Part shown: positions 7,320 to 58,060 of the stretch, one piece after another
Layout of the letters: the number at the start of each line of letters is the position of its first letter
Position numbering within the stretch: position 1 is the stretch's first letter
Origin: Bacteroidia bacterium
GTDB lineage: Bacteria > Bacteroidota > Bacteroidia > UKL13-3
Direction of reading: 5' to 3'
DNA length: 64,000 nucleotides
NCBI GenBank assembly: GCA_041675505.1
Contig: JBAYTR010000005.1
Coordinates: forward strand, 53,871-117,870
Translations under genes and position numbers: made by a program
Notes under the pieces: generated by a model
What the model saw: the letters and a program-made list of their open reading frames with translations, nothing else
Told to the model about the DNA's origin: nothing
Databases searched by the model: none

Positions 7320-8279
7320 ATGAGAATTGCAGTAACCTTGATTTTTATTTCCTTTATCTCTGCTTTACAGGCGCAGGATTCTGTATATGTAAGCGGGAAG
7401 AAGCAGCCCTTGGTATGTTATGTAAGTCGCATAACTAAAAATATAGTTGTAGTAAAACCGGATACGTTACACAACAGTAAAGCAGATACACTTTCTACAG
7501 GGTACATTACTAAAGTAGTTTTAAAAGGAGGAGTGGAAGTCTTTTTCAAAAAGCCGGTTGCGTTTTATTCTAATGACACCTTAATGATCAGGTCCAATTC
7601 AAGCACACTGAAAATGGATGTTCCCTTTTGTATACCCAATAGACTATCCCTCTCTTTTGAAACGATGGCAGGTAAAGCCTCATCAATAGAAATAAGTGCA
7701 GGTTGGGTAAATACAAACCTAAGTATTATGAGAATAAATGACGATGATAATTACAGTGAAATCAAGAGCGATTACACCCATGGCTTTTATGGTACTATCG
7801 GATATAAAATACTGCTTTCGGCTATCAATAGAAGTCCGAGTCCTTCCTATTGGCACAAGCTCACGGGGGCTTATCTACGTCCTGAAATAAATTTTTCTAT
7901 GCTTAACATTACCCGGTACGGTGAATATGAAGAGGAACAAATTGTTTTTGGCCCAACCTGGGAAGACTATACCGAGAAATTCAAACAAAAAAGTATAGCA
8001 CTTTCCTTTAACTATGGCTATCAATCTGTCGAAAGAAATAGATTAGTCTTTGATATATATGTGGGGGCAGGAGTTTCCTGGGCATCTAATCAAATGATCA
8101 GCACAACGTTTCCACCACCGTTATTTGTAATTTCCCACAGGTATTTGAACAGGTCTCCGGTAGATATGTTTTCATACATCACGTTAAAGAATGCTGACAT
8201 TAGTCCGATGCTTCAATTTGGAGTTAAGTGTGGACTTGCATTAGGTAGGAAAAAGAGCATTTCAGTTAATTCGAGATAA
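7320..8279 (+). CDS. Secreted paralog 2 (same family as 5706..6581)
   Basis: Signal peptide 'MRIAVTLIFISFISALQAQD'. Conserved 'YVSRITKNIVVVKPDT' and 'VVLKGG' in the N-domain. The C-terminus is 'GVKCGLALGRKK'. Confidence 0.6.
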   Translation: MRIAVTLIFISFISALQAQDSVYVSGKKQPLVCYVSRITKNIVVVKPDTLHNSKADTLSTGYITKVVLKGGVEVFFKKPVAFYSNDTLMIRSNSSTLKMDVPFCIPNRLSLSFETMAGKASSIEISAGWVNTNLSIMRINDDDNYSEIKSDYTHGFYGTIGYKILLSAINRSPSPSYWHKLTGAYLRPEINFSMLNITRYGEYEEEQIVFGPTWEDYTEKFKQKSIALSFNYGYQSVERNRLVFDIYVGAGVSWASNQMISTTFPPPLFVISHRYLNRSPVDMFSYITLKNADISPMLQFGVKCGLALGRKKSISVNSR

Positions 8280-12239: not shown

Positions 12240-12890
12240 ATGATTGTGGGAAAAAACATTTTCAAAGCCTACGGTAATGTTAAGGTTTTAAACGGAATAG
12301 ACCTTTCTATACAAAAAGGAGAGGTTGTTTCGGTTGTCGGAGCCTCAGGAGCAGGAAAAAGTACCCTTTTGCACATACTGGGTACATTAGATAAAGCCGA
12401 TGCAGGAGAGTTAATGTTGAACAACACAGCTGTTCACGCGCTTAAAGGCAATGAGTTAGCTGCTTTTCGCAATAAAAATATCGGCTTCGTATTTCAGTTC
12501 CATCAGCTATTACCTGAGTTTACTGCTTTGGAAAATGTGTGTATCCCCGCTTTTATTGGTGGAGTTGCCAAAGTAGAGGCCGAGAAAAAAGCCATGGAGT
12601 TGCTCGATTTTTTGGGCTTACCACAAAGGGCGCAGCATAAACCCGCAGAACTTTCAGGCGGAGAACAACAACGCGTAGCAGTAGCCCGTGCGCTCATCAA
12701 CAATCCCGCAATAGTGCTGGCCGATGAACCATCAGGTAATCTGGATTCGCACCATGCGGCTGAGTTGCATCAGCTCTTTTTCAGGTTGCGCGACCATTTT
12801 CAGCAAACATTTGTTATCGTAACCCACAACGAAACCCTCGCAAATCAGGCTGACAGAAAGCTGGTGATGAAGGACGGACGGATAATTTAG
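12240..12890 (+). CDS. ABC transporter ATP-binding protein (LolD/FtsE-like)
   Basis: Walker A 'GASGAGKST', signature '[10 protein letters not shown]', Walker B 'ILADEP' and H-loop are all present. Confidence 0.8.
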
Positions 12891-24015: not shown

Positions 24016-24031
24016 AGAAAAATTGGTGTAA

Positions 24032-24418
24032 TTAAACGTGGTAAACAGCAGAGAGTTTTTCAAAAAGTTCTTCGGGTTTAAACGGCTTGGTGATAACATC
24101 ATTTATGCCGGCCGTCTTAGCATTTTCCTGTGTGTCGGAAGAAGCATCTGCCGTAAGTGCAAAAATGGGAGTGGTGGTATTGAATTTTCGTATTTCAACA
24201 GAGGCTTCAATTCCATTCATTACGGGCATATACATATCCATCAAAATAACATCATAAGTTCCTTCCGTACATTTATCAACGGCTTCTCTGCCGTTTTTTG
24301 CCACATCCGTTATCACCCCCCAGCGCTGCACAAATTTGGTAAGCACCAGTATGTTCATGTTATCATCTTCAGCAATAAGCATACGTAAACCGGTCAGGTC
24401 GTTTTTTACTTCACTCAT
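24032..24418 (-). CDS. Stand-alone response-regulator receiver (CheY-like) domain protein
   Basis: The 128-aa protein has 'LIAEDDNMN', '[14 protein letters not shown]', 'ALTA' and 'KPF', which are all the canonical REC residues. There is no output domain. Confidence 0.85.
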
Positions 24419-24442: not shown

Positions 24443-25462
24443 TTAAGAATTTGAAACTACAGCAGATTCAATTTTGCGCGGTTGATATTTTGCAGCCATC
24501 TCAGCTATTGCTTTAATGTGATCGGGTGTGGTTCCGCAGCAGCCCCCCAAAACGTTCACTAATCCTTCTTTGCAAAATTCTTCCACTTGCTTGGCCATAG
24601 CAGCGGGACTCTCGTCATATTGCCCCATTTCATTTGGTAAACCGGCATTGGGATATGCACTTACATAATACGGGGAGTTGTTGGCCATTACCTGCAAATA
24701 TGGTCTTAAAGCACTTGCACCTAAAGCACAATTTAATCCTATACTTAGTAAAGGCATATGTTGCATGCTGATAAGAAAGGCTTCTGTAGTTTGTCCGGAT
24801 AGTGTTCTTCCCGATGCATCGGTTATGGTTCCACTCACCATAATAGGAATACGTTTACCTGTTTCTTCAAATAATTCGTCAATAGCATACAATGCTGCTT
24901 TGGCATTTAGAGTGTCAGTGATTGTTTCAATCAGCAGCAGTTCAACTCCACCATCAAGCAAGCCCTTTGCCTGTTCTTTGAAAGCTACTACTAATTGGTC
25001 GAAAGTAACGGCTCTATATCCGGGGTTGTTTACATCTGGTGACATTGATGTAAGTTTTGTTGTTGGACCCATTGATCCCGCAACATATTTGGGCTTGTGG
25101 GGTTCCTTAGCTGTAAATGCATCTGCCACTTCGCGAGCAATTTTTGCTGATTGGTAGTTAATCTCATATACCAAAAAACCAAGTTCGTAATCTGCCTGCG
25201 CAATACTTGTGCTACCAAAAGTATTGGTTTCAATAATGTCTGCTCCGGCTTCCAGGTATTGTTGGTGAATGGCTTTTATAACATCAGGTCGCGTGATAGA
25301 TAATAAGTCGTTGTTCCCTTTGAGGGATAGTGGGTGATTCTTTAACTGTTCGTTTCTGAAATCATCTTCTTCCAAATGATACCGCTGAATCATGGTTCCC
25401 ATAGCGCCATCCAGTATAAGGATACGTTTTTGAATAATGTCTTTTATATTGGGTTTTGTCAT
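24443..25462 (-). CDS. metH: Homocysteine S-methyltransferase domain protein (N-terminal polypeptide of the split MetH)
   Basis: The 339-aa protein has '[10 protein letters not shown]', 'DIIETNTFG' and a C-terminal '[11 protein letters not shown]' zinc/Hcy-binding motif. Confidence 0.85.
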
Positions 25463-25520: not shown

Positions 25521-25632
25521 TGCTCATCTGTATACGAAACAGTAATTTCGTATTAGGAGTTGGCACCCGTCACTTGCCGGGTTGCCAAGACTTCACAGGG
25601 CCTATTCCCTCTGTCTTTCTTGATAAGCGTGG
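25521..25632 (-). promoter_or_regulatory. SAM-I riboswitch in the 5' leader of the split metH operon
   Basis: The reverse complement reads 'CGCUUAUCAAGAAAGACAGAGGGAAUAGGCCCUGUGAAGUCUUGGCAACCCGGCAAGUGACGGGUGCCAACUCC...ACAGAUGAGCAG'. This matches the SAM-I consensus (P1 'CUUAUC'/'GAUGAG', 'AGAGGGA', 'GGCCC', 'GGCAACC', 'GGUGCCAA..CC'). Confidence 0.85.
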
Positions 25633-28769: not shown

Positions 28770-28883
28770 AGGTATCAGTGTCCGAATTACCTCAATTGTT
28801 TGTTTAGAATTATTCTAATTATTGGCTATTTTGCACTGCAACATTTACAGAATGTTATATATTTACCCCAAAAACAATACTAC

Positions 28884-30023
28884 GTGAAATTAGCAGTACT
28901 CAAAGAAACACGGGCCAATGAGCCGCGTGTGGCACTTACACCCTCAGTGGTGCAAAGTTTTGTAAAGGCCGGATTTGAAGTTACGGTAGAGTCGGAAGCG
29001 GGCATGGCCTCTTCTTATTCTGATGAGGCTTATGTTAAGGCAGGAGCAAAAATAGCTTCTTCAGTAGCTGATTTGTACAACAATGCACAAGTGGTTATTA
29101 AAATGAGCCCCCCTCAGGAAAATGAGGTGCAGCAATTGCCACAGGGATGTTCACTGATATCGCTGATTTATGGAAGCATGAACGCGGCATTGGTGCAACA
29201 GCTTAACCAAAAACAAATATCAGTATTTGCTATGGACGCCATTCCGCGTATTTCGCGTGCACAAAATATGGATGCCTTAAGCTCACAAAGTAATCTGGCG
29301 GGTTATAAAGCGGTGTTGCTGGGTGCAAACCACATGCAGAAAATATTTCCGTTGATGATGACGGCTGCCGGAACTATAACCCCCTCTCGTGTGCTCATAT
29401 TTGGTGCAGGTGTGGCCGGATTACAAGCTGTAGCTACCGCGAAACGTTTGGGTGCCATTGTGGAGGTAACTGATGTTCGTCCGGAGACAAAGGAACAGGT
29501 GGAATCATTAGGTGGTAAATTTATTGAAGTAAAATCTGATGACGCTGTTAAAGTAGAAGGCGGATACGCCAAGGAAGTTTCTGCTGAATATTTACAGAAA
29601 CAAAAAGAAGCCGTGAACAAATCATTGTTTCAGGCCGATCTTGTTATCACAACAGCCTTGGTAATGGGCAAAAAAGCTCCTGTACTCATTACGGAAGAAC
29701 AGGTAAAACAAATGAAACTGGGCGCAGTAATAGTAGATATGGCCATTGAACAAGGCGGTAACTGCGAACTGAGTGAATTGAATAAAAATGTTAACAAATA
29801 CGGTGTAAACATTATCGGTCAGGCTAATTTGCCCGGTACACTTTCAAACAATGCCAGTGAGCTGTACGCAAAAAACGTGTACAACCTGCTTATGCATTTG
29901 GCTACAAAAGACGGTTTTAAATGGGAGCTGGAGGAAGAGATTACCAAAGGTACACTTATCGCACACAAAGGTGAAATCCTGAACCCCATGATTAAGCAAG
30001 CATTATCACAACCCTCAAACTAA
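28884..30023 (+). CDS. pntA: NAD(P) transhydrogenase subunit alpha, part 1 (PntAA). Probable GTG start, giving 'VKLAVLKETRANEPRVALTP'
   Basis: AlaDH/PNT N-domain. The 'GAGVAGLQA' Rossmann motif is present. The ORF has no in-frame ATG near the conserved N-terminus. Confidence 0.85.
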   Translation: MKLAVLKETRANEPRVALTPSVVQSFVKAGFEVTVESEAGMASSYSDEAYVKAGAKIASSVADLYNNAQVVIKMSPPQENEVQQLPQGCSLISLIYGSMNAALVQQLNQKQISVFAMDAIPRISRAQNMDALSSQSNLAGYKAVLLGANHMQKIFPLMMTAAGTITPSRVLIFGAGVAGLQAVATAKRLGAIVEVTDVRPETKEQVESLGGKFIEVKSDDAVKVEGGYAKEVSAEYLQKQKEAVNKSLFQADLVITTALVMGKKAPVLITEEQVKQMKLGAVIVDMAIEQGGNCELSELNKNVNKYGVNIIGQANLPGTLSNNASELYAKNVYNLLMHLATKDGFKWELEEEITKGTLIAHKGEILNPMIKQALSQPSN

Positions 30024-30338: not shown

Positions 30339-30358
30339 TAAAGGAATTTCGAATGCTC

Positions 30359-30786
30359 AATTTCTAATGGTTAATAGTGTAAATATTTTGAATGTAATGT
30401 CTGAAGGTAAGATATACGATTTGGAGGAACGCACTTTCATATTTGCTAAAAGAGTTAGAGACTTTGTTCGATTATTGCCATTAACGATTTCCAACAAAGA
30501 AGATATTCGTCAGTTAATTAGATCATCAGGCTCAATCGGTGCAAATTATATAGAGGCTAATGAGAACCTAGGAGAAAAAGATAAAAAGATGCGCATACGT
30601 ATTTCAAGAAAGGAAGCTAAGGAGACTAGATACTGGCTTAATTTAATTGAAACGAAAGATGTTAAGGAACTTGAGGAAGAAAGAAGAAGATTGGCCACTG
30701 AGGCTGAAGAATTGATGCTAATATTTGGGACTATAATTAAACGTTTAAATTAACAATTCGAGATTCGGAATTAACAATTAGAAATT
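30359..30786 (+). mobile_element. Mini-insertion carrying a 'four-helix-bundle protein' gene, bounded by 17-bp imperfect inverted repeats. Left repeat 'aatttctaatggttaat' at 30359-30375; right repeat 'attaacaattagaaatt' at 30770-30786
   Basis: The two repeat arms agree at 16 of 17 positions when one is reverse-complemented. The element expands the pntAB-pntB junction, which is normally a few bp, to about 450 bp. Confidence 0.5.
30397..30753 (+). CDS. Four-helix-bundle protein (TIGR02436-like, '23S rRNA intervening-sequence protein' family)
   Basis: The 118-aa protein has 'YDLEERTFIFAKRVRDF', 'IRQLIRSSGSIGANYIEANE' and 'KDKKMRIRISRKEAKETRYWLNL', which are family hallmarks. Confidence 0.8.
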   Translation: MSEGKIYDLEERTFIFAKRVRDFVRLLPLTISNKEDIRQLIRSSGSIGANYIEANENLGEKDKKMRIRISRKEAKETRYWLNLIETKDVKELEEERRRLATEAEELMLIFGTIIKRLN

Positions 30787-30794
30787 AAAACAAC

Positions 30795-32210
30795 ATGCAA
30801 CAACACATACTACAACTCATATATCTGATAGGCTCAGTAACTTTCATTCTCGGATTAAAGTATCTGGGTAATGCTGCTACAGCCCGAAAAGGTAACCTTA
30901 TTGCAGCATTTGGTATGGCCATCTCCATTTTCGGAACTATCTTTTTGTATACAGATAAAGATGGCAATCACCTGGGTAATCTGGGTTTAATTTTTGGCGG
31001 TCTGATTGTAGGAACCATAATAGGTTGGATGGCCGCTAAAAAAGTACAGATGACAGCTATGCCGGAGATGGTGAGTTTGTTTAACGGAATGGGTGGTGCC
31101 TGCGCTATGCTTATTTCGGTTATTGAATTTCAACACCTCACCTCACCTGAGCACACAGGACCTCTTGCCAGTGGTATGTTACTTACCATCATTACCGGAT
31201 TGATTATCGGCTCGGTTTCTTTCTCCGGAAGTATAATTGCCTGGGGCAAACTCAGCGGTAAGGTGAAAGACAAATCATTCCCTTTTCAGCAATACATCAG
31301 CATAGGTTTAATGCTGGTGATTTTGTTTTTCGCCTATCAGGTGATTGCATTAAAATCAGACAATTTTCAAACTGAACTTTACATTGTACTGGCACTTTCT
31401 CTGGTGTACGGTATCTTATTCGTACTGCCAATTGGTGGTGCTGATATGCCTGTGGTTATCTCGTTGCTCAATTCTTTTACTGGTGTGGCCGCAGCTTGCG
31501 GAGGTTTCCTTTACGATAACAAGGTGATGCTGGTAGGAGGTATACTGGTTGGTTCAGCAGGAACACTGCTCACCATTGTGATGTGTAAAGCCATGAATCG
31601 CTCCCTGTTGAATGTGTTAATAGGTAATTTTGGTGGTGGTGCTTCAGGCGCTGTTGCCACTTCATCAACAATAGTGGGTTCCATTAAAGAAGTGAAGGCC
31701 TCTGATGCAGCTATACTAATGAAATATGCCAAGAAAGTAATTATTGTTCCGGGTTACGGATTGGCTGTAGCACAAGCACAGCACGTGGTGCATGAACTGG
31801 AAGAACTTTTGGAAAGAGAGGGTGTAGAAGTTAAATATGCTATTCATCCCGTTGCCGGTCGTATGCCTGGGCACATGAACGTATTGCTGGCTGAGAGTAA
31901 TGTGAGCTACGATAAATTGGTGGAAATGGAAGAAATCAATCCGGAGTTCAATACCACAGATGTGGTACTGGTAGTAGGAGCGAATGACGTAGTGAACCCA
32001 GCAGCTAAAACAGATCCCGCTTCACCTATTTACGGTATGCCCATACTGGAAGTGGAGAATGCCCAAAATGTGATTGTAAACAAACGTAGCATGAAAGCCG
32101 GTTATGCAGGCATCGAAAACGAGTTGTTCTACCGTCCTAAAACCAGCATGTTATTTGGTGATGCGAAAAAAGCACTAACTGAGTTGGTGAACGAAATAAA
32201 ATCCCTTTAA
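30795..32210 (+). CDS. pntB: NAD(P) transhydrogenase subunit beta
   Basis: The 471-aa protein has an N-terminal polytopic membrane domain and a C-terminal dIII domain with 'VPGYGLAVAQAQH' and 'GANDVVNPAA'. Confidence 0.9.
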   Translation: MQQHILQLIYLIGSVTFILGLKYLGNAATARKGNLIAAFGMAISIFGTIFLYTDKDGNHLGNLGLIFGGLIVGTIIGWMAAKKVQMTAMPEMVSLFNGMGGACAMLISVIEFQHLTSPEHTGPLASGMLLTIITGLIIGSVSFSGSIIAWGKLSGKVKDKSFPFQQYISIGLMLVILFFAYQVIALKSDNFQTELYIVLALSLVYGILFVLPIGGADMPVVISLLNSFTGVAAACGGFLYDNKVMLVGGILVGSAGTLLTIVMCKAMNRSLLNVLIGNFGGGASGAVATSSTIVGSIKEVKASDAAILMKYAKKVIIVPGYGLAVAQAQHVVHELEELLEREGVEVKYAIHPVAGRMPGHMNVLLAESNVSYDKLVEMEEINPEFNTTDVVLVVGANDVVNPAAKTDPASPIYGMPILEVENAQNVIVNKRSMKAGYAGIENELFYRPKTSMLFGDAKKALTELVNEIKSL

Positions 32211-32211: not shown

Positions 32212-32751
32212 ATGAAAAAAATACTTTTGATTGTAGGCGGAATTATTCTTTTAGCTGTAATTGCTCTGCCTGTATTGCGCTCTCAAACTAAAAAACACAG
32301 CCCCGAAGCGGTGGTTACTTTTAACAGCAACGGTTTTGATATGCAGGTCAACTACTGCCAACCCTCTAAAAAAGGAAGGCTGATTTTTGGCGAAAAGGCA
32401 GATGGTGCCTTGCAACCTTATGGCGAGTATTGGAGAGCCGGAGCTAATGAGGCAACTGTGTTTGAAACCAAAACAACCATCAACTTTGGCGGCAAAATAT
32501 TACCCGCAGGCAAATACAACCTTTACGTATACCCCGGAAAAGACAACTGGGATATTTGCTTAGGCAGTGATTGGGACAGGTGGGGTGCAGCCGAGGCAGA
32601 TAAAGCGAAGGAGTTGATGAGAGTCAACGTACCGGTTGATAATAACGCCTCGCTACAAGAGGTATTCACCATTTCTTTCGACCCCAGCGGGGCTCTTATT
32701 TTGCATTGGGATCAAACCAAAGTAATGGTGCCCGTGCTTTTGGCGGGATAA
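32212..32751 (+). CDS. DUF2911-like secreted protein
   Basis: Signal peptide plus 'YGEYWRAGANEAT' and 'GKYNLYVYPGKDNWD', motifs I associate with DUF2911. Confidence 0.5.
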   Translation: MKKILLIVGGIILLAVIALPVLRSQTKKHSPEAVVTFNSNGFDMQVNYCQPSKKGRLIFGEKADGALQPYGEYWRAGANEATVFETKTTINFGGKILPAGKYNLYVYPGKDNWDICLGSDWDRWGAAEADKAKELMRVNVPVDNNASLQEVFTISFDPSGALILHWDQTKVMVPVLLAG

Positions 32752-32869
32752 TTCATTAAATTCTTAATGTTGAATGCTTAATTTTTAATTAAGGCAGTTT
32801 ATTCAGTTGGAAAGAATAGCGTTAAACATTAATTCTTTTTTTACATCGAATAAGCAAAAACTTTAACTT

Positions 32870-41966: not shown

Positions 41967-42231
41967 GGCAGTTAATTACTGCGTCCAATTTCGGTAATTC
42001 GCGTTGAAAACTCAACAAAAGTCATTTAAATACGACTTCGTTACGCCCATAGGAAGTTTATGTTTTAAATATTAATAGGAAAGAGTTCAATCAGACCGGA
42101 TAGGCGAAGCGCTTAAAGGAAAAGTTGTAAAGTATTAGCCTATAATATATTAACTAACATTTGAATGGAATTGAGAAAAGGTGAAATAGGAATGCAGTAG
42201 CACTCATCCAATTGAGTTGGTGGTTAAGAAA

Positions 42232-43035
42232 CTATTCGGAAGTTGTTTTTAGTATTTTTTGATAACTAAAACTCCCATCGGCAAGTTGAACCCGAAGGAT
42301 ATACAAACCGGGTACCAGATACCGCAACTCATCAATAATGATTTCAGATTGTATTTCTTTGAAACTACACTTGGTTACCTTGCCATCACTCGCATGAATA
42401 AGTATTAGGGAGTATGGTGCGGTTGGTATTTTTACATGCAATTGGTCATTGAATGGATTGGGGTAAACTTCGACTTTGTTTACAGCAGTTTTTTGTATAC
42501 CGCTTGCAAATTCAAAAAGTGCAATTTCAATAGGAAAGTGCCACTTAAAATATGGGGGGAGTACAATAGAATCGCTCATCCTCATATCATATCGATTACC
42601 AAAATTTGTATTTAAAATATAATCATTGCGCATTTTTGCTTCATGTATAACAAATGGAATAGCTTGTGACCTGAATAAATTGGTGTCCCATCGAACAATA
42701 AAAGGAGGTTTTCCGCCATATGAAAAAACATCTGTAACAACTCCAAAATAATTTGTACGAACCGTATTTGCTTTTACAGGGTCATTGCCATAAAAAGAAT
42801 AGACCTGAAATTTTGCTGTTGCAGATGTATCGACTGAAATAGTTTGTTCGCCTAACAACGTGTCTCTACCTGTTGTGGCAGACGAATCCAAAGCCAGATA
42901 AACTGTATCTCTTTGTCCGCTGGAATCTTCAAACGCTACCCAAAATTTCCATTGAGGTTCCTTTGCAAAAACTGCTGATTGGGCTTGGACAGTAAAAGAA
43001 AATCCCAGCAGCAGAAATATGTATATATGTTTCAT
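42232..43035 (-). CDS. T9SS C-terminal-domain cargo protein (function unknown)
   Basis: Signal peptide plus the C-terminal 'VYPNPFNDQLHV..LYILRVQLADGSFSYQKI' Por-secretion tail. Confidence 0.65.
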   Translation of the reverse strand: MKHIYIFLLLGFSFTVQAQSAVFAKEPQWKFWVAFEDSSGQRDTVYLALDSSATTGRDTLLGEQTISVDTSATAKFQVYSFYGNDPVKANTVRTNYFGVVTDVFSYGGKPPFIVRWDTNLFRSQAIPFVIHEAKMRNDYILNTNFGNRYDMRMSDSIVLPPYFKWHFPIEIALFEFASGIQKTAVNKVEVYPNPFNDQLHVKIPTAPYSLILIHASDGKVTKCSFKEIQSEIIIDELRYLVPGLYILRVQLADGSFSYQKILKTTSE

Positions 43036-43156
43036 TAGCATTTAAGACCTTAGTGCTAATGTAAACAATATTTGATGGGAAAGCCAAAAGAATCTGAATA
43101 CTTTTTTTTTGCACCCGGCTTTTCAGTGGGTTGGAATCAACGTTTTTGTGATTGAG

Positions 43157-45577
43157 TTAGATGGTCCGTCTAATTTCGGAAATTCTACGTTGAATACTCA
43201 ATAAAAATCCGATAATCATCACAATAGTACCGCCCCACAGGAAGTTGATGTAAGGAAATACAATGGCTTTCATGATGATGAAATTTTTGCGCGGACTACG
43301 TTCAGCAGTCTCTATCAGGATGTGTTCTGTTTTAGGGTCGATGTTCATAAAACGAAAACGCAGTCCGGTTTCATCGCTCACTTTTTCAATGCTTACTATG
43401 CCGTTACCCTCAATGGCGTAAACGGGTTCAACGGTGTAGGTACTGTCCAAGGTTACTATACGTATTTTTGCGGCTACGGCTAAATCAACATTAGCCAATT
43501 CAGGCGAACTGCTGCGGTCAACCTTGGTGTGTAATCCGTCAAAGTAAACCATGCCGTTGTTGGTACGTACACTGTCGCCTTGTTTCAACTCGTGTTTCTT
43601 TTCGTTGTGGAAAGGCGCATCATTTTCTTCGTTCTTCTTAGGAACTGAGCTTACATACGTGAACACATCATGCGATAAATAGTGTCGAGTATCCGGGTTG
43701 GCAATAAAGCCCATCTTCGGATTAATTTGTCCGTTGGGATAAAGCATAAAGGTGTTTTTTACATTCCCTTCTTTATCCAACTGTTCATAACGCACCTTGT
43801 AGTAAATATTTACCCACTTACTGGAGTCGCCTAAATAGGTTACCCGGTAGTTATTCATGTCAACAGGCTTACCTTGTTCCAGGTAAATATTTTCGTAATT
43901 CTCGCGCACGGTTTTCTGATCTTCACCATCAAAAAATGCTTGTCCGGTATTGTTGCGCGAAATCACATTTTTATTGGCTGAAGAAACCAATACACCTATG
44001 AGCATAAGCCCGAAACCGATGTGGGCCACAGATGCTCCCGATACTTTTATCTTGCCCTGAATAAACGGCCAGGCGGTTTTAAAGTTAACCACAATAGTGT
44101 AAACGGAGGCAAATAATAAAATGAAGTACAGCCAATTATTTAACCCGAACCACCAAAAAGCCATGCCGGTTAACACCAATGAAATACTTCCGAGCACAGC
44201 AGCCTCTTTCCAGAATTTTTTGCTGTCGGTTTTCAGGTACTTGAGTAATTGTGCTGTTGCAGTTAGCAAAGCAATCAGTATAGCGATGGGCAATTGCCAT
44301 TTGTTGTAGTGAGCAATTACATCAGTAGGAGGGGCCATGTTACTGCCAAATACTTTATTGATAACGGGCAGGGAAGTGGTAAGTATAATTTGGAAGGCAG
44401 ATACAATTAATACCAATGCACCTATGAACATCCAGAACTCACGTGAGTAAGCATTTTCTTCTAAGGGAGTTGTAGGGATTTTTTTCCAGTGTACCACCAT
44501 AAGCACTATGGCCAATACAAGGAACATAAGCAGAAATACCAGTAGTTGTCCGCTCATACCTAAGTCGGTAAAGGAGTGTACAGAGGAGTTGCCCAAAATA
44601 CCGCTGCGGGTTAAGAACGTAGCATACAGCACCAATACAAAACTGGTAATCACCATAAGGTAACTGAAGTGCAGGGCCGTTTTGCGCGCTTTGTAGATGA
44701 GCATGGTATGTACCGCACCAATAAGAATTAACCAGGGGATAAGTGAGGCATTTTCTACGGGGTCCCAGGCCCAGTAACCGCCAAAACTCAATGATTCATA
44801 GGCCCAGAAACCGCCCATAATAATGCCGGTTCCCAATACCATTACTCCAATGAGTGCCCAAGGCAAAGCAGGCTTAATCCATTCGGTATATTTTTTCTGC
44901 ATCAAGGCTGCCATGGCATACGCAAACGGAACAATGGTACAGGCAAAACCAAAGAACAAGGTAGGCGGATGAATTACCATCCAGTAATTTTGTAACAGCG
45001 GATTTAAACCATTGCCGTCTTTAATGCGGGTAAGGTAATCGGGCATGCTGAAAACAGGGCCGCTTTCATTTACTATCCGCATCAGTTCAAACGGACTGCT
45101 GCCTAATTTGTAGCCGAAAACTTTAACTCCGATAAGCATGGAGGTAAGTGCAATTTGCGAAAGGCTGAGCACAAACATGACGGGGTATTTCCATTCTTTG
45201 GCAGTAAAGAGCAGAATTAATCCCAGTACCATGTGCCAGAAAATCCACAGCAGAAAACTTCCTTCCTGACCTTCCCAAAAGCAGGAAATCATATAATACC
45301 AAGGCAAGTCGGTTGACGAGTGCTGCCAGGCATACTGGTACTCGAAGTAGTGGCTGTAAATTATATAGAACAGGGAAGCTACAATGCTCAGCACAGCGGC
45401 TGCGTGTAGGTAAAAACCAATTACGGCAGATTTACCCCAACCGGTTTCATCGGGTGAGCGAAAGGCTTTGAAAAAAGCGGCACTGCTGAATATGGCTGTG
45501 GCAAAGGCGAGAACTACTGAGAAATGACCCAGATTTCCGGGTAACAAATGTTCTCCTTCAAAAATAATTTCCTGCAT
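43157..45577 (-). CDS. ccmF: Cytochrome c-type biogenesis protein CcmF-like (heme lyase, WWD family)
   Basis: The 806-aa polytopic protein has a WWD motif ('GGYWAWDPVENASLIPW') and conserved His residues flanking it. Confidence 0.75.
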   Translation of the reverse strand: MQEIIFEGEHLLPGNLGHFSVVLAFATAIFSSAAFFKAFRSPDETGWGKSAVIGFYLHAAAVLSIVASLFYIIYSHYFEYQYAWQHSSTDLPWYYMISCFWEGQEGSFLLWIFWHMVLGLILLFTAKEWKYPVMFVLSLSQIALTSMLIGVKVFGYKLGSSPFELMRIVNESGPVFSMPDYLTRIKDGNGLNPLLQNYWMVIHPPTLFFGFACTIVPFAYAMAALMQKKYTEWIKPALPWALIGVMVLGTGIIMGGFWAYESLSFGGYWAWDPVENASLIPWLILIGAVHTMLIYKARKTALHFSYLMVITSFVLVLYATFLTRSGILGNSSVHSFTDLGMSGQLLVFLLMFLVLAIVLMVVHWKKIPTTPLEENAYSREFWMFIGALVLIVSAFQIILTTSLPVINKVFGSNMAPPTDVIAHYNKWQLPIAILIALLTATAQLLKYLKTDSKKFWKEAAVLGSISLVLTGMAFWWFGLNNWLYFILLFASVYTIVVNFKTAWPFIQGKIKVSGASVAHIGFGLMLIGVLVSSANKNVISRNNTGQAFFDGEDQKTVRENYENIYLEQGKPVDMNNYRVTYLGDSSKWVNIYYKVRYEQLDKEGNVKNTFMLYPNGQINPKMGFIANPDTRHYLSHDVFTYVSSVPKKNEENDAPFHNEKKHELKQGDSVRTNNGMVYFDGLHTKVDRSSSPELANVDLAVAAKIRIVTLDSTYTVEPVYAIEGNGIVSIEKVSDETGLRFRFMNIDPKTEHILIETAERSPRKNFIIMKAIVFPYINFLWGGTIVMIIGFLLSIQRRISEIRRTI

Positions 45578-46227: not shown

Positions 46228-46902
46228 TCAGTTGTCGTTTAACGTTTGTTCAATCTTTTTAATTCGAACGCGAATTGTCGCAATCCACGTGCCAAGAAGC
46301 GTCCATCCGAGCACTGCGGGATAAAAAACCATACGCATGTTGCTGTCTAAATCGTATTGGTTAAATCCCGGGTTTCCTCCGTTGCCGGGGTGAAGTGAAG
46401 CGGTAAGCCTCGGTAATACAAATATCAACACCACAAAAACGGGGAATGCAAATATATTGTAAACGGCTGAAATTCTTGCTCTTTTTTCCACATCTTCTAA
46501 AGCATCTCTCAACACTGTGTAAGCTAAATAAATCAGCATGCCAATGGCCGCGCTGTTCAGCTTGGGGTCATTGGTCCACCAGGTGCCCCAGGTATTTTGG
46601 GCCCAAATCATACCGGTGAGTAAACCCAACACTCCGAAAAATATCCCTGAAAAGGCCAGTTGTGAAGCAATAATGTCGTATTGACGCTGGTTGGTGCTCA
46701 GGTAAACAATGCTGTAAACGGTAGAGGCCAGCAGCAGCAGTAACATACTGAACCACATGGGCACATGAAAATACAGGTTACGGATGGACTCTTCCAGAAT
46801 GGGTAAATGGGGCACCGGACCCGTAAGTCCTTGAAAGATGGTGTAGTAGAGTAAAACCACACACAGTATTTTCCACCAGTGTTTAGCCATAAAGCGGTGC
46901 AA
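46228..46902 (-). CDS. ccmC: Heme exporter protein CcmC
   Basis: The 224-aa protein has six TM helices and the WWD-like 'WAQNTWGTWWTNDPKLN'. Confidence 0.65.
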   Translation of the reverse strand: MHRFMAKHWWKILCVVLLYYTIFQGLTGPVPHLPILEESIRNLYFHVPMWFSMLLLLLASTVYSIVYLSTNQRQYDIIASQLAFSGIFFGVLGLLTGMIWAQNTWGTWWTNDPKLNSAAIGMLIYLAYTVLRDALEDVEKRARISAVYNIFAFPVFVVLIFVLPRLTASLHPGNGGNPGFNQYDLDSNMRMVFYPAVLGWTLLGTWIATIRVRIKKIEQTLNDN

Positions 46903-47037
46903 AGTTAGCCAATGCAGCTAAGTATGGAAATGAAAAGAGGAAATTAATTTTTAATGCGAAGCGGAGCTCAGTGCAGCTGATTCTTAATGAATACTCAATC
47001 ATTCAACATTAAGAATTAATCACTCAACATTAGCCCC

Positions 47038-47697
47038 TCAGTCTTTCCATATAAAAGGAAACAGGATGTAAGCCAGAACCGCGATAATGAGGTTGATGAG
47101 CAGTATAACAGAAAAATCCTGGTAGAAGGTAGTATAGTCCAATCCGTCAACGGCTTTTTTTGCTACTTTAATGGTGACCAGCAACAACGGAATGATTACC
47201 GGAAAACTCAGAATGGGCATAAGCACGTGGCTGTTGTTGGCCTTGGAAGCAATGGCCGAAACCATAGTAAAACAAGCGGCCAGCCCCATACTTCCCAGGG
47301 TTGCTGTAAGGGTAAAGGCCCACATGTTCTGAATAATGTTGCCGATAAGGGTGCAATACACCAGCAAACACAACAGGCTCAGCACAAGCATGAGCAGTGT
47401 GTTGTAAATCATTTTGGAAAGTATGATGCCTTGCGCACTGGCAATGGTGTAATAATACAACATGCGTCCGCGGCTTTCTCCGATAAAAGATTTGGCCACG
47501 GCACTCACACTACTGAACAGCATGATAATCCAAAACAGCGCGTTCCAACTGGCGGGATTGACTACATGAAAAGAAAGGAAAGCCACAAATACAGAAGATA
47601 TTACGTAGAGCAACATCCCGTTAATGGCATAACGCTGTCTCCACTCGGTGAGTAGTTCCTTCTTCAGCAATACGCTTACTTCATGCTTTAAAGTCAT
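47038..47697 (-). CDS. ccmB: Heme exporter permease CcmB
   Basis: The 219-aa polytopic protein sits at the head of the ccm cluster. Its length and topology are CcmB-like. No ccmA is adjacent. Confidence 0.55.
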   Translation of the reverse strand: MTLKHEVSVLLKKELLTEWRQRYAINGMLLYVISSVFVAFLSFHVVNPASWNALFWIIMLFSSVSAVAKSFIGESRGRMLYYYTIASAQGIILSKMIYNTLLMLVLSLLCLLVYCTLIGNIIQNMWAFTLTATLGSMGLAACFTMVSAIASKANNSHVLMPILSFPVIIPLLLVTIKVAKKAVDGLDYTTFYQDFSVILLINLIIAVLAYILFPFIWKD

Positions 47698-47699
47698 GG

Positions 47700-48140
47700 G
47701 GCGAAATTACAACTTTTGCGCTTCGCTTAATTTTGAATTTTTAATGCTTAATTCTTAATGGGGTGCTTTTGGGTGTTTAAGTGGGTAAGTGTTTAGGTGT
47801 TTATGGGCAGGCTTTATTTAAGCCACAGATTTCACAGATAAGAAAATTAATCAGTGTAATCAGTGGCAGAAACGCTTTGCTTAATTTTGAATTACCCTTC
47901 TTCCGTTAAATGTGATATAATCTGCGTGAATCTGAGGAATCAGTGGCAGTCCTGTGCTTCGCTTAATTTTGAATTTTTAATGAAATGTCTTCCACTAAAT
48001 GTGATTTAATCTGCGTTAATCTGCGAACCGTAAGCTCAGCGAAGCTAAATTAGCGGCAAGAAACGCTTCGCTTAATGTTTAATGAGGGCTTCTGGTAAAT
48101 GTGATATAATTTGTGAAATCAGTGTTAATCAGTGGCAGTT
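47700..48140. repeat. Four degenerate tandem units (~80-110 bp each). Each begins '(aa)acgctt(c/t)gcttaatt(t)tgaat...', contains 'taaatgtgat(a/t)taat(c/t)tg', and ends 'aatcagtggcag'
   Basis: Visible by eye. Unit boundaries are roughly 47720-47869, 47870-47949, 47950-48057 and 48058-48139. Confidence 0.7.
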
Positions 48141-48162
48141 TATCGGTAGTGTGAACAGAACC

Positions 48163-48855
48163 CTACTGCTTTGGTGCAGGAACCGGTTGGCATTCTATAG
48201 TGAGTTGTTTTACCCATTGCTTTTTCTTTTCGTCCCAGTATTCTTTCTCTGTGGGTGTGAGGTGCTCCATGGGCATTTGAGTATCCACTTTAGTTAAAGG
48301 TTGATTGGTACTGCTGAAGGTAATTTCAGTTTCATACCAATACCTGCTGGCTCCCGGATTCATACTGGTGTTGGCACTTTCTACCGAACCGTTGGGGCGG
48401 TGTTTCAGTATGGTGATGATGGAGTAGGAGAAGTGCTTGTCTTCGAAGGTATAGGTAAGCTGTCCGTTCATATCAAAGAGCTGAATGGTGCGCTGGTCAT
48501 TTTTCCACGGACTGGTTTTTACGGATATTTTTTTGCTGTTGCTGTAGTAAACGTATTGCGTGTCGGTGGGCATTTTGTAAACCGGAGTTTTTACAGGTTT
48601 TTTCTCGGGAGTTTTTTTGACAGGGTTGGGAGTTGTAATTTTTTTGATTGGTTGAGGTGTTGTTTTCTTTAGCTGTTGAACAGTATCGGTGTGTTCGATT
48701 ACTACCTGCCTTTTATGTACCTGAACAGTTTCAGTTTCGTATACGATCACCTTTTTTCTATGGTACACGGTATCGGTATCCTGTGTTGTGCCGTTGTTTT
48801 CAGGTGTACAACCCCAGATAAGCGCCATGATCAAAATTGGTAAGATGATTCGCAT
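48163..48855 (-). CDS. Hypothetical lipoprotein with a K/P-rich linker
   Basis: Lipobox 'LIWGC'. Low-complexity 'TPQPIKKITTPNPVKKTPEKKPVKTPV'. Confidence 0.5.
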   Translation of the reverse strand: MRIILPILIMALIWGCTPENNGTTQDTDTVYHRKKVIVYETETVQVHKRQVVIEHTDTVQQLKKTTPQPIKKITTPNPVKKTPEKKPVKTPVYKMPTDTQYVYYSNSKKISVKTSPWKNDQRTIQLFDMNGQLTYTFEDKHFSYSIITILKHRPNGSVESANTSMNPGASRYWYETEITFSSTNQPLTKVDTQMPMEHLTPTEKEYWDEKKKQWVKQLTIECQPVPAPKQ

Positions 48856-54465: not shown

Positions 54466-55212
54466 CTAATGCGGTGGTAGAACATCCCAAAAAACTAAAT
54501 TCGGTTTGCACTTCTTAATCTTTTGAATAGTTGGGTAAATACTCATTCGACTCAAATAAAGTTCTTTGTTTTTTATTTTTGAATCAATAATATTGAATTG
54601 ATGAATGTCGCTCAATTTACAAACATCACATTTAATCTCTGTTATTTGTTTGGTCTCGAATGTGAAACTTTGAAGCTTACTTAGTGTCTCTATCCATTGT
54701 GGTATAACCTGCGATTTTCCTCTATAGCCTAAAAAAGTTAAGCCCAAAAAGGCTGAATCAAATTGGGGAAACGTCAAATTTGGCGCAAACAAGTATAAAA
54801 AGTTCAAGCTGTCACTTACGTTAATCAAGTTGATTCTATCCACCTTGTATCCTCCAAAGATTCCAATTGATTGAAGGTTTTCAAATTTGGCCAAATCTAG
54901 ATTGGTCACAGGCTGATTTAAATTGTCAATCCGAATGCTGATAATTTTATTCAGGTCAATATGTAGTGACAATGCTTCGAAATCAATTGGCTTTGTTGAA
55001 TTAATTACCAACTGACTTATATCTTTTGATTTAATTGAATCTGGTATCTCTGAGATATCGCAATTTGTTAGGTATAGAGCATGATATTTCTCTTTATATA
55101 CAACGCAACTATTCTTGCTTGGAATGTCTTTTTTTGTTGTATTGTCACAAGAAGAGACAATTAACAGAATAAGAACTATGCATAAGGAATTAAAAGTACA
55201 TCTTACTTTCAT
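54466..55212 (-). CDS. Leucine-rich-repeat-like lipoprotein
   Basis: Lipobox 'IVSSC'. Repeated 'L..L.L..N.I' segments. Confidence 0.5.
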   Translation of the reverse strand: MKVRCTFNSLCIVLILLIVSSCDNTTKKDIPSKNSCVVYKEKYHALYLTNCDISEIPDSIKSKDISQLVINSTKPIDFEALSLHIDLNKIISIRIDNLNQPVTNLDLAKFENLQSIGIFGGYKVDRINLINVSDSLNFLYLFAPNLTFPQFDSAFLGLTFLGYRGKSQVIPQWIETLSKLQSFTFETKQITEIKCDVCKLSDIHQFNIIDSKIKNKELYLSRMSIYPTIQKIKKCKPNLVFWDVLPPH

Positions 55213-55345
55213 TGTACTAAAATAGAAAAAAAAGAGAGGTTTTATGAGGCTGTTTCAATTTTTATTTTCTAAATCAATCTTTTCTTGTGCTCAACTTTGG
55301 TTCTTGCAAGCATTGGGGCTTTCGGTTGGTTCGTGTAACACGAAC
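55213..55345 (-). repeat. Copy B of the duplicated leader/hairpin module. Contains a perfect 10-bp palindrome 'ttggttcgtg taa cacgaaccaa'
   Basis: Read directly in the sequence. Confidence 0.6.
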
Positions 55346-55442
55346 CAAAGCGGGGTAATTTGATGTAATTTAACTTTTTTGCCACTTTCGTTTGTTAGTG
55401 CTGTCACAAACAAAAGAAAACGGTGAGTGGATATGTGTTATT

Positions 55443-56168
55443 TCAATAAAGTAAGTCTGCACCGTTTTCTTTTAAGGTATCAATTAATCCTTTTACACCT
55501 TGTTTGATGATTTCTTTTTTAGATTCACTTAAAAATTCCTTTATGAACTTTGTTCCTTGTTTTGCAATTTTCGCCCAAATACTTGTCAACTTTGTGACAA
55601 CCCACTTTTTTGATTTATTAGTAATATGGTCACGAAGGACTATAATGTCTTGCTTTATTTCCTTAATGTCTTTTGTGTTATTTTCAGTTTCAAATTCAGA
55701 TAATCTATTCCCTATCGCTTCCAAGTATTTGTCTAATAGTAAAATCTGATTAGTTTTCAATGGCTTTGATTCTGCTTCTTCGTCTATTATTTCAAATTCA
55801 GCGTAAAACTCTTCTTTAAATGACTTTGTTATTGGGTCATCAAAAAAAGAATTTACGCTTTCGTATTCATTTAATAAATTTGACCAAGCTTCAAATTGCC
55901 CTTTCAAACTTGTTACTTCAACCCAAGTTTGATAACTTCCGCTATCATTAATGTTTCGTGGACACTTTGTTATTAAGAATTGAAATATGTTACTGTTAGT
56001 TTTTTGATAATCTTCGATAGTAAAATGAAACTTTGAATCTAAATCTTTATCAATTATCTTAAGTAAATTTTCTTTTGGCTCAATAACTTCAAATTTGTCA
56101 CCTTTTAAATTGACGAAAGGCTCCAATGCTTTCAAAATTACTAATGGTAAGTCCTTTTTCTTTCTCAT
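55443..56168 (-). CDS. Hypothetical cytoplasmic protein (241 aa, AT-rich, orphan)
   Basis: ORF only. Its K/E-rich composition is unlike the flanking core genes. Confidence 0.45.
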   Translation of the reverse strand: MRKKKDLPLVILKALEPFVNLKGDKFEVIEPKENLLKIIDKDLDSKFHFTIEDYQKTNSNIFQFLITKCPRNINDSGSYQTWVEVTSLKGQFEAWSNLLNEYESVNSFFDDPITKSFKEEFYAEFEIIDEEAESKPLKTNQILLLDKYLEAIGNRLSEFETENNTKDIKEIKQDIIVLRDHITNKSKKWVVTKLTSIWAKIAKQGTKFIKEFLSESKKEIIKQGVKGLIDTLKENGADLLY

Positions 56169-56414
56169 GCTTATTGATGGTTTGTCGTTTTATATGCTTG
56201 GAATTTATATAGACGCCATTCTTAGTTCTTTTGAAAATATTGATTAGATTTCGCAGCCATACCAGATAAATTTTAGGTAAAACTAATCGCATGTATGCAG
56301 AAAAACAAATGTAGAAGATAAGTTCAACTTCGCTATAGCTCCTGTCCCCACGAGCCACTAAAGAAAAATCCGTGGAATCTGTGCAATCAGTGTCGCACTC
56401 CTCTTGTGCAGGAG

Positions 56415-57704
56415 CTATTTCTTTTTCTTCCCCGGTATCTTGTTCAAATCCTCGTGCAGGTCTTTGATGGAGCCAAAGCCAATCACATCTTTCAGCACCG
56501 GGTCTTTGGATAACTCAGCGGCCCGTATAATTTTTTCTGTACCAAAGCGGCCCTTAATGCCGTACACGGTTTTGCGTAATTTGTCTTTGCGGCTGTGGTC
56601 GTCAAACAGGGAATACTGCACCTGTGTATCGGGTACAAAATCACTTACCGTTACGCCCAAAGCTGCCAGTTGGTTGTTGATGATGGGTTGTGTTTGGTGC
56701 TCCTTTTCAAAAGCCTCCATTTTTTGTTTTACTAAGTGCAACAAATCAATGCCGTCCTGCAAGGGTTGGGAGAGAGGGATGCCTGTTCCCCACTCGTAGC
56801 CGTCAATGTAGCGGCAGTAGAGCGATATGTTACGGCAAAATACGCCTTGCTTTACCATGCGCCCTTCCAGTTTGAGGCAAAGGGATAACAACAACTCTTG
56901 CAAGGTTTCCAATTTTTCGCGCTGGTGTTTGGAAATCATGCGTTGCGCGGCCATGCTCTTGTAATCGTGGGTTTCGGTATCTATGGTTACTTCCTGAAAG
57001 TTGAGGCGCTGGTGCCAGTACAAACCCACCACACTGCGGCAAGCCGCTTTAAGTTTTTGCGGAGAGGTATACCGCAGTTCCAGCGGAGTGCGAATGCCTG
57101 CATGCTCCAGTCGCGTGGCCATGCCACGGGCAATGCCGGGCAGATCGGTTAGTTTCATGTTTTTCAGAATACCGTCAATGGTATCGGGCATAATGGTGGT
57201 AAGGCCATCGGGCTTTTTCACATTGGAAGCCAGCTTGGCTAAAAAGGCATTGGGGGCAATGCCAATGGAACAGGTAAGGTAATCGCCCACTTCATTTTTA
57301 ATATCTTTTTTTATTTGTTTGGCCAGCTCTTTCGGGTCTTTGTAAATAAGGTGGTAGCCCGTAAGGTCAATCACGGCTTCATCAATACTTTTGGGAATTA
57401 CCTTATCCGAGTACTTGCGCAACACGTTCATGATTTTGATGTGTATTTCGCGGTACAGGTTAGGATGTGTTTCCACCGCTACAATATCGGGGCACACTTT
57501 TAAAGCCTCGTTCATGCGCATACCACCTTTTACTCCTTTTTTCTTAGCATCAACGGAAGCGGCAATAATGGCGGCAAAACGGTTGAGGTACACACATACG
57601 CCCACAGGTTTTCCGCGCAGTTCAGGGTTTACCTGTTGCTCGCAGGTAGCAAAAAAACTGTTCATGTCCACAAACAGAAAACAAGATTCGGGTGCGCGTT
57701 GCAT
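56415..57704 (-). CDS. dinB: DNA polymerase IV (Y-family)
   Basis: 'FLFVDMNSFFATCEQ', 'KPVGV' and 'SIDEAVIDLTG' are Y-family palm motifs. It has a long C-terminal little-finger domain. Confidence 0.85.
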   Translation of the reverse strand: MQRAPESCFLFVDMNSFFATCEQQVNPELRGKPVGVCVYLNRFAAIIAASVDAKKKGVKGGMRMNEALKVCPDIVAVETHPNLYREIHIKIMNVLRKYSDKVIPKSIDEAVIDLTGYHLIYKDPKELAKQIKKDIKNEVGDYLTCSIGIAPNAFLAKLASNVKKPDGLTTIMPDTIDGILKNMKLTDLPGIARGMATRLEHAGIRTPLELRYTSPQKLKAACRSVVGLYWHQRLNFQEVTIDTETHDYKSMAAQRMISKHQREKLETLQELLLSLCLKLEGRMVKQGVFCRNISLYCRYIDGYEWGTGIPLSQPLQDGIDLLHLVKQKMEAFEKEHQTQPIINNQLAALGVTVSDFVPDTQVQYSLFDDHSRKDKLRKTVYGIKGRFGTEKIIRAAELSKDPVLKDVIGFGSIKDLHEDLNKIPGKKKK

Positions 57705-57869
57705 GTGTGCTTACAGTGGGATAAAATTACTTCTACGGGCTTACAATTGCATCATCAGTTGGCAGGTAAATTTCAACGCGTTAAACAGCAACTGTTTGTA
57801 TTTTTTGTTTGGAGAAAAATAAAACTCTCCCTTTCTTCGCATCCGTTACTCGGTTCTTAGTTCATATAA

Positions 57870-58060
57870 TTTGAACAAAAGATTAATAGGGAATCAGGTG
57901 TAAATCCTGAACAGTTCCCGCTGCTGTAAGTTTCTGCAACGCAAGTTGCAACCTGTTGCCAGCCTTTACGTCACTGTTCACCTTTGGTGGATGGGAAGAC
58001 CGGACAACTGGGGAAATGAGTCAGAAGACCTGCCGCAATAACACAAGTGCATGTAGCTTT
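57870..58060 (+). promoter_or_regulatory. Cobalamin (AdoCbl) riboswitch
   Basis: 'AATAGGGAATCAGGTGTAAATCCTGAACAGTTCCCGCTGCTGTAAG', then 'CACTG..GGGAAG', then the B12 box 'AGTCAGAAGACCTGCC'. It lies about 110 nt upstream of the TonB-dependent receptor. Confidence 0.9.

Follow-up and report, generated by a model that had tools for sequence, protein, structure and literature searches.

Between the start of ccmB (position 47697, minus strand) and the stop of the open reading frame (ORF) of 230 amino acids (aa) upstream of it (48163, minus strand), a 64,000-nucleotide (nt) stretch of the Bacteroidia bacterium assembly GCA_041675505.1 (contig JBAYTR010000005.1, positions 53,871 to 117,870; the whole stretch is called the window below) holds a spacer of 465 nt. 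What is this spacer made of, and does it stand in for ccmA, which Proteobacteria carry directly upstream of ccmB? An earlier note, made from the letters of the sequence alone, had seen a degenerate tandem repeat block in the spacer and had offered several identities for it: miniature inverted-repeat transposable elements (MITEs), repetitive extragenic palindromes (REPs), small RNA (sRNA) genes or promoters. We find that the block is real and belongs to a dispersed repeat family, and we think it probable that it is one array of lineage-specific, non-coding mosaic intergenic repeats, shaped by recombination and largely neutral or selfish.

The tandem block is present and stands far above chance. 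The 21-mer CGCTTCGCTTAATTTTGAATT matches four times at up to three mismatches (47719, 47873, 47955 and 48064, all on the plus strand) against a chance expectation of 0 in 100 shuffles, which bears out the four-unit block first described, and the phased pattern TNAATNNTNAATNNTNAAT occurs eight times where 0.05 occurrences are expected. Positions 47717-48138 (plus strand), split after the tail, resolve into four degenerate head-to-tail units of 153, 80, 110 and 79 nt; the four head copies in the block are spaced 154, 82 and 109 nt apart in the repeat search, and the 12-nt tail AATCAGTGGCAG is exact at 47858, 47938 and 48127. The order within a unit is a linker of 4-6 nt, the head GCTTCGCTTAAT, phased TTAATKN heptamers, a core, and AATCWGTGN nonamers with the tail at their end. 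Two core types occur here, type A, cttccgtTAAATGTGATWTAAT (units 2-4), and type B, made of GTGTTTAN octamers (unit 1); across the family the core types are few, about four having been seen, and interchangeable. The array begins with a head and ends exactly at a tail, and a comparatively GC-rich tail-linker-head junction of about 20-30 nt recurs along it. Tandem Repeats Finder (TRF) makes no call of a long-period array and reports only short-period sub-repeats, which are included below.

47038-47697, minus strand: ccmB (Pfam CcmB, E 6.7e-11); its start abuts the head end of the array.
47698-47716: ccmB-proximal flank, outside the repeat units; the ccmB strand reads ...GCAAAAGTTGTAATTTCGCCCC-ATG.
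47717-47869, plus strand: unit 1, core type B, 153 nt; head GCTTCGCTTAAT at 47720, heptamers at about 47727-47762, GTGTTTAN octamers at 47773-47803, inverted nonamers at 47823-47839, nonamers and tail AATCAGTGGCAG at 47848-47869.
47870-47949, plus strand: unit 2, core type A, 80 nt; linker AAAC, head GCTTTGCTTAAT, core cttccgtTAAATGTGATATAAT, nonamers, tail at 47938-47949.
47950-48059, plus strand: unit 3, core type A, 110 nt; linker TCCTGT, head at 47956, core, a nonamer run broken by a 21-nt module, and a degenerate tail AATTAGCGGCAA.
48026-48046, plus strand: the nested 21-nt module aaccgtaagctcagcgaagct within the nonamer run of unit 3.
48060-48138, plus strand: unit 4, core type A, 79 nt; linker GAAAC, head at 48065, core, nonamers, tail at 48127-48138.
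47741-47760, 47773-47803, 47848-47865 and 48006-48025: TRF sub-repeats of period 7, 8, 9 and 10, respectively.
48163-48855, minus strand: 230-aa ORF with a signal-peptide-like N-terminus containing a Cys; 24 nt separate its stop from the array's tail end.

With periods of 7-10 nt, the sub-modules fall within the 5-11-nt range of short-period tandem direct repeats in intergenic DNA; this does not hold for the whole unit. The anatomy given in the earlier note was right in substance but over-generalised. The core 'taaatgtgat[at]taat' does occur in units 2-4, with the exact quoted string in unit 2 only, but unit 1 carries the octamers followed by an inverted nonamer pair in its place. Likewise, unit 3 ends 'aattagcggcaa' and not 'aatcagtggcag', and the proposed opening 'acgct' begins units 2 and 4 only. 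The strand that reads head first is rich in G and T (GC skew about +0.2, TA skew about +0.15), and the array is richer in AT than its flanks. Within the nested module of unit 3, AGCGAAGC is complementary to the following head GCTTCGCT. The 230-aa ORF has no significant Pfam or NCBIfam family; a homologue of it lies directly upstream of ccmB in three relatives described below.

We asked how far the family extends beyond this locus with leave-out profiles, made from units of other genomes alone, at loci not orthologous to this one. The type-A profile recovered unit 2 (E 3.3e-13), unit 3 (E 2.4e-12) and unit 4 (E 3.8e-9), and the type-B profile recovered unit 1 (E 1.2e-23). Because profiles from other loci match all four window units, the family is multi-copy. 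A scan with the 19-mer head across one genome per species (GTDB) returned 70 stretches, mostly with single matches; we take many of these single matches for chance, since their flanks, judged by eye and not by ORF calling, read as ordinary coding DNA. By contrast with these single matches, the metagenome-assembled genome (MAG) JAGPCK01 (Bacteroidia bacterium Gw_SlAct_bin_253) gave 13 head matches on 6 contigs, every one of the 13 in the same context of nonamers ending GGCAG, linker, head, heptamers, core and nonamers. These make up at least seven arrays on the six contigs, all intergenic, near housekeeping genes and in either orientation. The motifs are therefore not unique to the ccm locus, and the dispersed multi-copy family that had been proposed is found. 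The same units occur in a second Bacteroidia MAG, DATGWX01 (L053; L numbers denote individual sequence stretches here), and in 5 metagenome contigs, and a search of the metagenome collection with the junction pattern found five stretches only. CcmB homologues are 99%, 89% and 82% identical to that of the window, after which identity falls to 64% or less. On these sequence comparisons the family appears to be confined to a narrow lineage.

All arrays are intergenic. The genes on either side may be tandem, convergent or divergent, and the arrays lie in both orientations, with all four configurations represented and no rule among them. Their neighbours include genes for an asparaginase, an S51 peptidase, an HU/SPOR protein, a tetratricopeptide repeat (TPR) protein, a radical S-adenosylmethionine (SAM) enzyme and a glutamine amidotransferase. 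An association with mobile-element genes or with one class of gene was considered and dropped, as the neighbours are housekeeping genes. No transposase or recombinase gene was seen beside the arrays or in the scanned part of the window; Pfam scanning covered the window ORFs up to 57.8 kb, apart from two hypotheticals (54466-56168) and a 1,760-aa ORF that was compared with NCBIfam only. A literature search did not find a description of this repeat family. It is a previously undescribed family in an uncultured Bacteroidia lineage.

An abundant mosaic repeat of its own is carried by the unrelated MAG CALWRJ01, labelled 'uncultured Clostridia bacterium' (L006, L025, L032, L034, L065, L066, L070 and L071). 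It has an identical 19-nt head GCTTCGCTTAATTTTGAAT, TTTTGAA/TAGGAAT heptamers, a core, TGCTAAT heptamers and small hairpin modules, and its order of parts follows the same 'grammar' as the Bacteroidia family. The Bacteroidia profile matches the head and heptamer part only (E 5e-6 to 8e-4). This likeness could be a coincidence favoured by the search pattern, convergence or transfer.

The arrays change between close relatives. The window is identical to Logan contig L001. In a related strain or species (L002, L003 and L052; flanks 94-96% identical) the ccm site has 3 units with the core types in another order, and two of its contigs, L002 and L003, both from short reads, break off within the array. 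About 2.5 units are present in a third lineage (L076, flanks 91-93% identical). All sampled close relatives thus carry an array at the orthologous site, with 4, 3 and about 2.5 units, and L056, L074 and L053 have 6, 5 and 2 units, respectively, at a second site that is likewise orthologous. Where orthologous units differ, whole modules have been inserted or deleted between repeated heptamers; in one such pair, window unit 4 and L052 unit 3, the 3' half of the former is orthologous to the latter. More generally, unit length and core vary by insertions and deletions. In one MAG the nearest relative of a unit lies in a different array for 16 of 20 units (70-90% identity), and units with three different cores have the 21-nt module aaccgtaagctcagcgaagct in the same relative place, among them unit 2 of array b in L044 and a unit in L075. 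These patterns indicate local duplication and deletion by recombination or slippage, together with exchange between arrays. Linker classes tend to be specific to an array, which fits local duplication too.

Two kinds of module of about 20 nt are nested in units (L044 units with 'gaaacgaagttcaacgtagc', L052 7880-7900, and window 48026-48046). Both carry a C-GAA-G motif (AACGAAGTT, AGCGAAGCT), as does the opposite strand of the head (GCGAAGC). At the second orthologous site an ATG and 14 codons (MNNNVRLIGRLGMK) abut the last tail on the opposite strand (L056 about 260-300, L053 about 700-745, L074 about 7340-7385). The reading frame continues into the units, which gives the impression of a gene cut short by the array, and the peptide looks like the N-terminus of a single-stranded-DNA-binding protein.

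If the block occupied the place of a lost ccmA, as its position had suggested, relatives without the block should be informative. In L084-L086, whose CcmB is 82% identical, 36 nt lie between the end of the upstream ORF's homologue and ccmB, and these loci contain no array, no ccmA and no family match anywhere. The last ~19 nt of the window flank 47698-47716 resemble this 36-nt spacer (GTTAATTTTGCGCC-ATG in L084). In the more distant L087 (CcmB 62% identical) ccmB is the first gene of the cluster, and the one ABC ATPase among the scanned window genes (12240-12890) is LolD-like, not CcmA. Since the relatives that lack the array lack ccmA as well, the array is an addition in this lineage rather than a ccmA stand-in. 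That the block is a purely local tandem duplication, or a decayed ccmA remnant, unique to this spot has the Proteobacterial gene order to recommend it, and we give it almost no credence: units occur at at least seven other loci, relatives have no ccmA there, and no ORF is conserved across units.

We looked for RNA, promoter and folding signals that would identify the units as small transcription units. On this explanation each unit would be a promoter or sRNA gene, driven either by the TGnTATAAT-like 'tgtgatataat' of the core or by the TAnnTTTG-like 'TAATTTTG' of the head, and in its favour there is a perfect TGATATAAT in units 2 and 4. Bacteroidetes promoters have a -7 box TAnnTTTG and a -33 TTTG about 19-21 nt upstream. 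TAnnTTTG is present in the head of 10 of 33 family units on the head-first strand and in none on the reverse strand, but a TTTG placed 17-23 nt upstream of it, at the -33 position, was found in 0 of the 33. TGnTATAAT is limited to 3 of the 33, namely window units 2 and 4 and their orthologue, most others reading TTTAAT or other variants, and a scan for sigma-70 promoters and intrinsic terminators returned 0 sites. Rfam gave nothing in or beside the block, either at gathering score across the whole window or at E<=1 in 46850-48250, where the only match was Entero_CRE inside the ccmB coding sequence (26 bits against a gathering score of 55, E 0.053). Compared with shuffles, the block folds with z -0.77 on the ccmB strand and z +1.84 on the plus strand, which is worse than 99 of 100 shuffles; both strands of the 33 family units gave mean z values of +0.1 and +0.3, with 1 of 66 below -2. 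No stable or conserved fold emerged from these units, and no ORF is conserved across them. The cores vary by insertions and deletions, and arrays lie in both orientations. We therefore consider it very unlikely that the units are promoters or sRNA genes, and this part of the earlier proposal is not upheld.

The same tests bear on a MITE, or on a REP or bacterial interspersed mosaic element (BIME) mobilised by a transposase or by a REP-associated tyrosine transposase (RAYT). The units are indeed short, non-coding, multi-copy, intergenic and dispersed, and assemblies break at the array. Against such an element, there are no terminal inverted repeats in the block, inverted matches being 8-11 nt long and AT-rich or incidental; head GCTTCGCTTAAT and tail AATCAGTGGCAG are not complementary; the units contain no 20-40-nt palindrome or stem-loop, with folding z about 0; the units of an array share one orientation, whereas those of BIMEs alternate; and no transposase was seen, nor any RAYT among the window genes scanned. 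In addition, the array sites are orthologous in all sampled close relatives rather than polymorphic insertion sites. The classical MITE and REP readings are largely refuted, and a mobilised element of this kind seems to us highly improbable. Comparison of the block with phage and plasmid collections (blastn) gave no match, and three pattern scans of viral contigs gave chance matches inside coding sequence, or nothing. The GC skew of the flanks, used as a proxy for replication orientation, showed no clear direction.

The mosaic intergenic array is the explanation that we favour. The arrays occupy fixed orthologous intergenic sites, the number and type of their units vary among close relatives, and unit types are common to several loci. 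The window array would have arisen after the split from the relative that has a 36-nt spacer at this site. It may later have changed by unequal or homologous recombination and by slippage between the conserved junctions and the short-period repeats, and arrays may have exchanged units by gene conversion or copy transfer. The array would be carried as largely neutral or selfish DNA, a recombination substrate and a spacer between the upstream gene and the ccm cluster, and would act neither as structured RNA nor as a set of promoters or a classical transposon. Several points weigh against this explanation. We infer neutrality from the absence of signals. Head and tail are clearly better conserved than the cores, which need not be mere homogenisation but could reflect selection for a trans-acting factor. 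To account for spread between loci we saw neither an enzyme nor a target-site duplication nor an insertion intermediate, and the flanks of the filled site in the window and of the empty site in L084-L086 are too diverged to define an insertion point or a target-site duplication.

The conservation of head and tail leads to another explanation, in which the tail-linker-head junction is the recognition site of a dedicated trans-acting protein and the arrays, like neisserial intergenic mosaic elements (NIMEs), are a functional substrate that grows by repeated action. Candidates for the protein would be a site-specific recombinase, an Ssn-type single-stranded-DNA nuclease, a nucleoid protein, or an enzyme of the HUH or RAYT-like kind. 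No other part of the unit is as well conserved or as rich in GC as the junction; the arrays have the defined, non-identical ends (head start, tail end) expected of discrete elements; and different loci have unit types in common. There is also precedent in Neisseria, where the dRS3 repeats of NIME arrays are targets of a phage recombinase (PMC1797815) and the longer NTS repeat, which encompasses dRS3, is cut by the single-stranded-DNA nuclease SsnA (PMC11893778). The complementary strand of the head contains GCGAAGC, which is described as forming an extraordinarily stable DNA mini-hairpin (PMC13037366). On the other side, a candidate enzyme gene turned up neither in the scanned part of the window nor beside the arrays, the junction is neither a palindrome nor a hairpin, unlike dRS3/NTS or REP, and no target-site signature was found. 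A dedicated protein of this kind is a possibility that we hold to be rather unlikely. By analogy, the arrays might also be the footprint of a hitherto unknown class of non-palindromic mini-elements mobilised in trans, each unit being a discrete element with a 5' end GCTTCGC... and a 3' end ...GTGGCAG, which a dedicated single-strand-specific or site-specific enzyme would insert beside an existing copy; this idea is quite doubtful. If it were true, the shared grammar in the Clostridia MAG would mean that the system or the writing enzyme had crossed phyla.

Relatives of the block elsewhere in the window were scored with a family profile built without the ccm locus. The motifs quoted in the earlier note are all present, but each corresponds to a single module and never to a whole unit. 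The matches are as follows.

46940-47037, minus strand: partial, degenerate copy between ccmB and ccmC, in the opposite orientation to the main block.
32753-32793, plus strand: solo heptamer run just past the stop of a DUF2911 gene (32212-32751, Pfam); profile E 0.0056.
30344-30375, plus strand: heptamer-module match; profile E 0.043; exact quoted string at 30351-30370.
56366-56392, plus strand: isolated run of nonamers, aatccgtgg aatctgtgc aatcagtgt, just downstream of where a gene at 56415-57704 (minus strand) stops; profile E 0.051.

The degenerate fragment at 46940-47037 is genuine and has pieces that resemble a tail and a head: its minus strand reads heptamers, a tail-like AATCAGCTGCAC and then a head-like GCTTCGCATTAA. 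Positions 46950-46985 contain the quoted 'ttaatgcgaagcg...gagctcag', and the profile matches the heptamer module only (46998-47033, minus strand, E 4.7e-5). The fragment is kept in L076 and absent from the 77-nt ccmB-ccmC spacer of L084. The full heptamer run behind the DUF2911 gene, 32752-32800, holds the motif quoted for that site. The matches at 30344-30375 and 56366-56392 are suggestive only. The former borders a gene at 30367-30753 (plus strand) for a 128-aa '23S rRNA intervening-sequence protein', a four-helix bundle (Pfam PF05635, E 1e-11), which lies between the transhydrogenase alpha genes (28800-30023 and a small ORF ending at about 30340) and pntB (30795-32210); a second weak heptamer-like run, 30756-30795, borders it on the other side. 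In addition, 'ggcgaagcgcttaaaggaaaagttgtaaag' at 42101-42135 (plus strand) resembles 'gcgaagcgcaaaagttgtaatttcg' of the ccmB-proximal flank (the reverse complement of 47698-47725) and may be another small family fragment.

Several further observations concern the ccm cluster and its surroundings. The window has TAATTTCG 4 nt upstream of the ccmB ATG, L084 has TAATTTTG (in the region 3965-4000), a perfect match to the Bacteroidetes -7 promoter box, and TAACTTTG stands before ccmC. A promoter for each ccm gene, with a very short leader or none, is what these motifs hint at. The ccmB-ccmC spacer of L087 is 555 nt long (4661-5214) and has sequences like 'gtcattgcgagcgag ... cggaatgacgg', which look like a different repeat family and are unrelated to the one studied here. 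Between ccmF and the next gene the window contains an insertion of ~1.15 kb (42021-43166) that encodes a 269-aa protein with a type IX secretion system (T9SS) C-terminal sorting domain (42232-43041, minus strand). It is flanked by a direct duplication of ~45 nt of the ccmF 3' end (about 41983-42022 and 43167-43206); L002 and L052 lack the insertion and have a single copy of the duplicated segment. Two riboswitches lie farther away. A cobalamin riboswitch (57834-58052, plus strand, 86.5 bits) precedes a 660-aa ORF that starts 120 nt downstream on the same strand, and a SAM riboswitch (25521-25629, minus strand, 76.9 bits) is followed on its own strand by genes for homocysteine S-methyltransferase (24443-25462) and B12-dependent methionine synthase (21328-24102).

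For annotation, the array explains the 465-nt 'gap' upstream of ccmB; no ccmA was lost there, and neither an sRNA nor a promoter should be annotated. In assembly, the array accounts for the breaks of this lineage's short-read contigs at sites of this kind. The family, which comes from Bacteroidia, has an unusual build: three short-period repeats (7, 8 and 9 nt) and a few interchangeable cores are set between a head and a tail that are fixed. It lacks secondary structure, and its strand asymmetry is strong (G>C, T>A). If a cognate binding or cutting protein exists, the family would give a second system, and a tractable one, in which arrays formed by intergenic repeats drive local recombination; if none exists, it is ordinary lineage-specific, junk-like DNA. 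Its interest would rise only if it were shown to have a cognate enzyme or a relationship across phyla.

How, then, does the family compare with repeat systems that are already known? The alternation of a conserved segment with variable ones recalls clustered regularly interspaced short palindromic repeats (CRISPR). Here, however, the spacing is irregular (154, 82 and 109 nt), the repeat is not of fixed length, and the 'spacers' are not unique but come from a few families common to loci, at 70-90% identity; the window genes compared with Pfam or NCBIfam showed no cas family. MITEs are similar in size, in copy number and in being non-coding, but the present units have no terminal inverted repeats and no recognised target-site duplication, and they form fixed tandem arrays. 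REP/BIME of Enterobacteria and BOX of Streptococcus pneumoniae are mosaic multi-copy intergenic repeats as well, the number of boxB modules varying in tandem. REP and BOX rely on imperfect palindromes or complementary modules and form stable stem-loops, whereas the units here are likewise modular but fold like shuffles and run head to tail only.

Elhai et al. (2008) reportedly described small dispersed repeats (SDRs) nested in cyanobacterial heptamer tracts. The modules of ~20 nt seen here (aaccgtaagctcagcgaagct and aacgaagttcaacgtagc) are similar in that they are nested at the same relative position in otherwise different units; the difference is that this pattern is equally expected from recombination that shuffles tail variants, and to our knowledge the SDR and nested-module sequences are unrelated. 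Intergenic heptamer repeats (TAACTGA) have been reported in Beggiatoaceae, Cyanobacteria and some Bacteroidetes, with assembly breaks and with repeat-free, shorter spacers in relatives (PMC4679880). Our family has all of these traits in common with these heptamer repeats, with the short tandemly repeated repetitive (STRR) heptamers of Cyanobacteria and with long simple sequence repeats: intergenic direct repeats of 7-9 nt, several heptamers per spacer, breaks in assemblies and shorter repeat-free spacers in relatives. It differs in that its heptamer is TTAATKN and not TAACTGA, in that the heptamers are one module of a dispersed tandem unit of 80-150 nt, and in that there is no preference for a position upstream of start codons in one orientation.

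The NIMEs of Neisseria consist of a short conserved element between 50-150-bp segments drawn from recurring families, and their syntenic arrays vary in unit number (PMC1797815). Their dRS3 is a 20-bp inverted repeat, ATTCCCN8GGGAAT, with 0 occurrences in the window at up to one mismatch, whereas the junction of the present family is non-palindromic. More than 100 repeat sequence (RS) families contrast with about four core types here, and the units here are built of tandem sub-repeats of 7, 8 and 9 nt and belong to another phylum, with no linked phage recombinase or Ssn nuclease identified. What the two have in common is a constant, short, relatively GC-rich element between family segments, in dispersed and syntenic arrays whose unit number and length vary. 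The family thus resembles the NIMEs in architecture, not in sequence logic.

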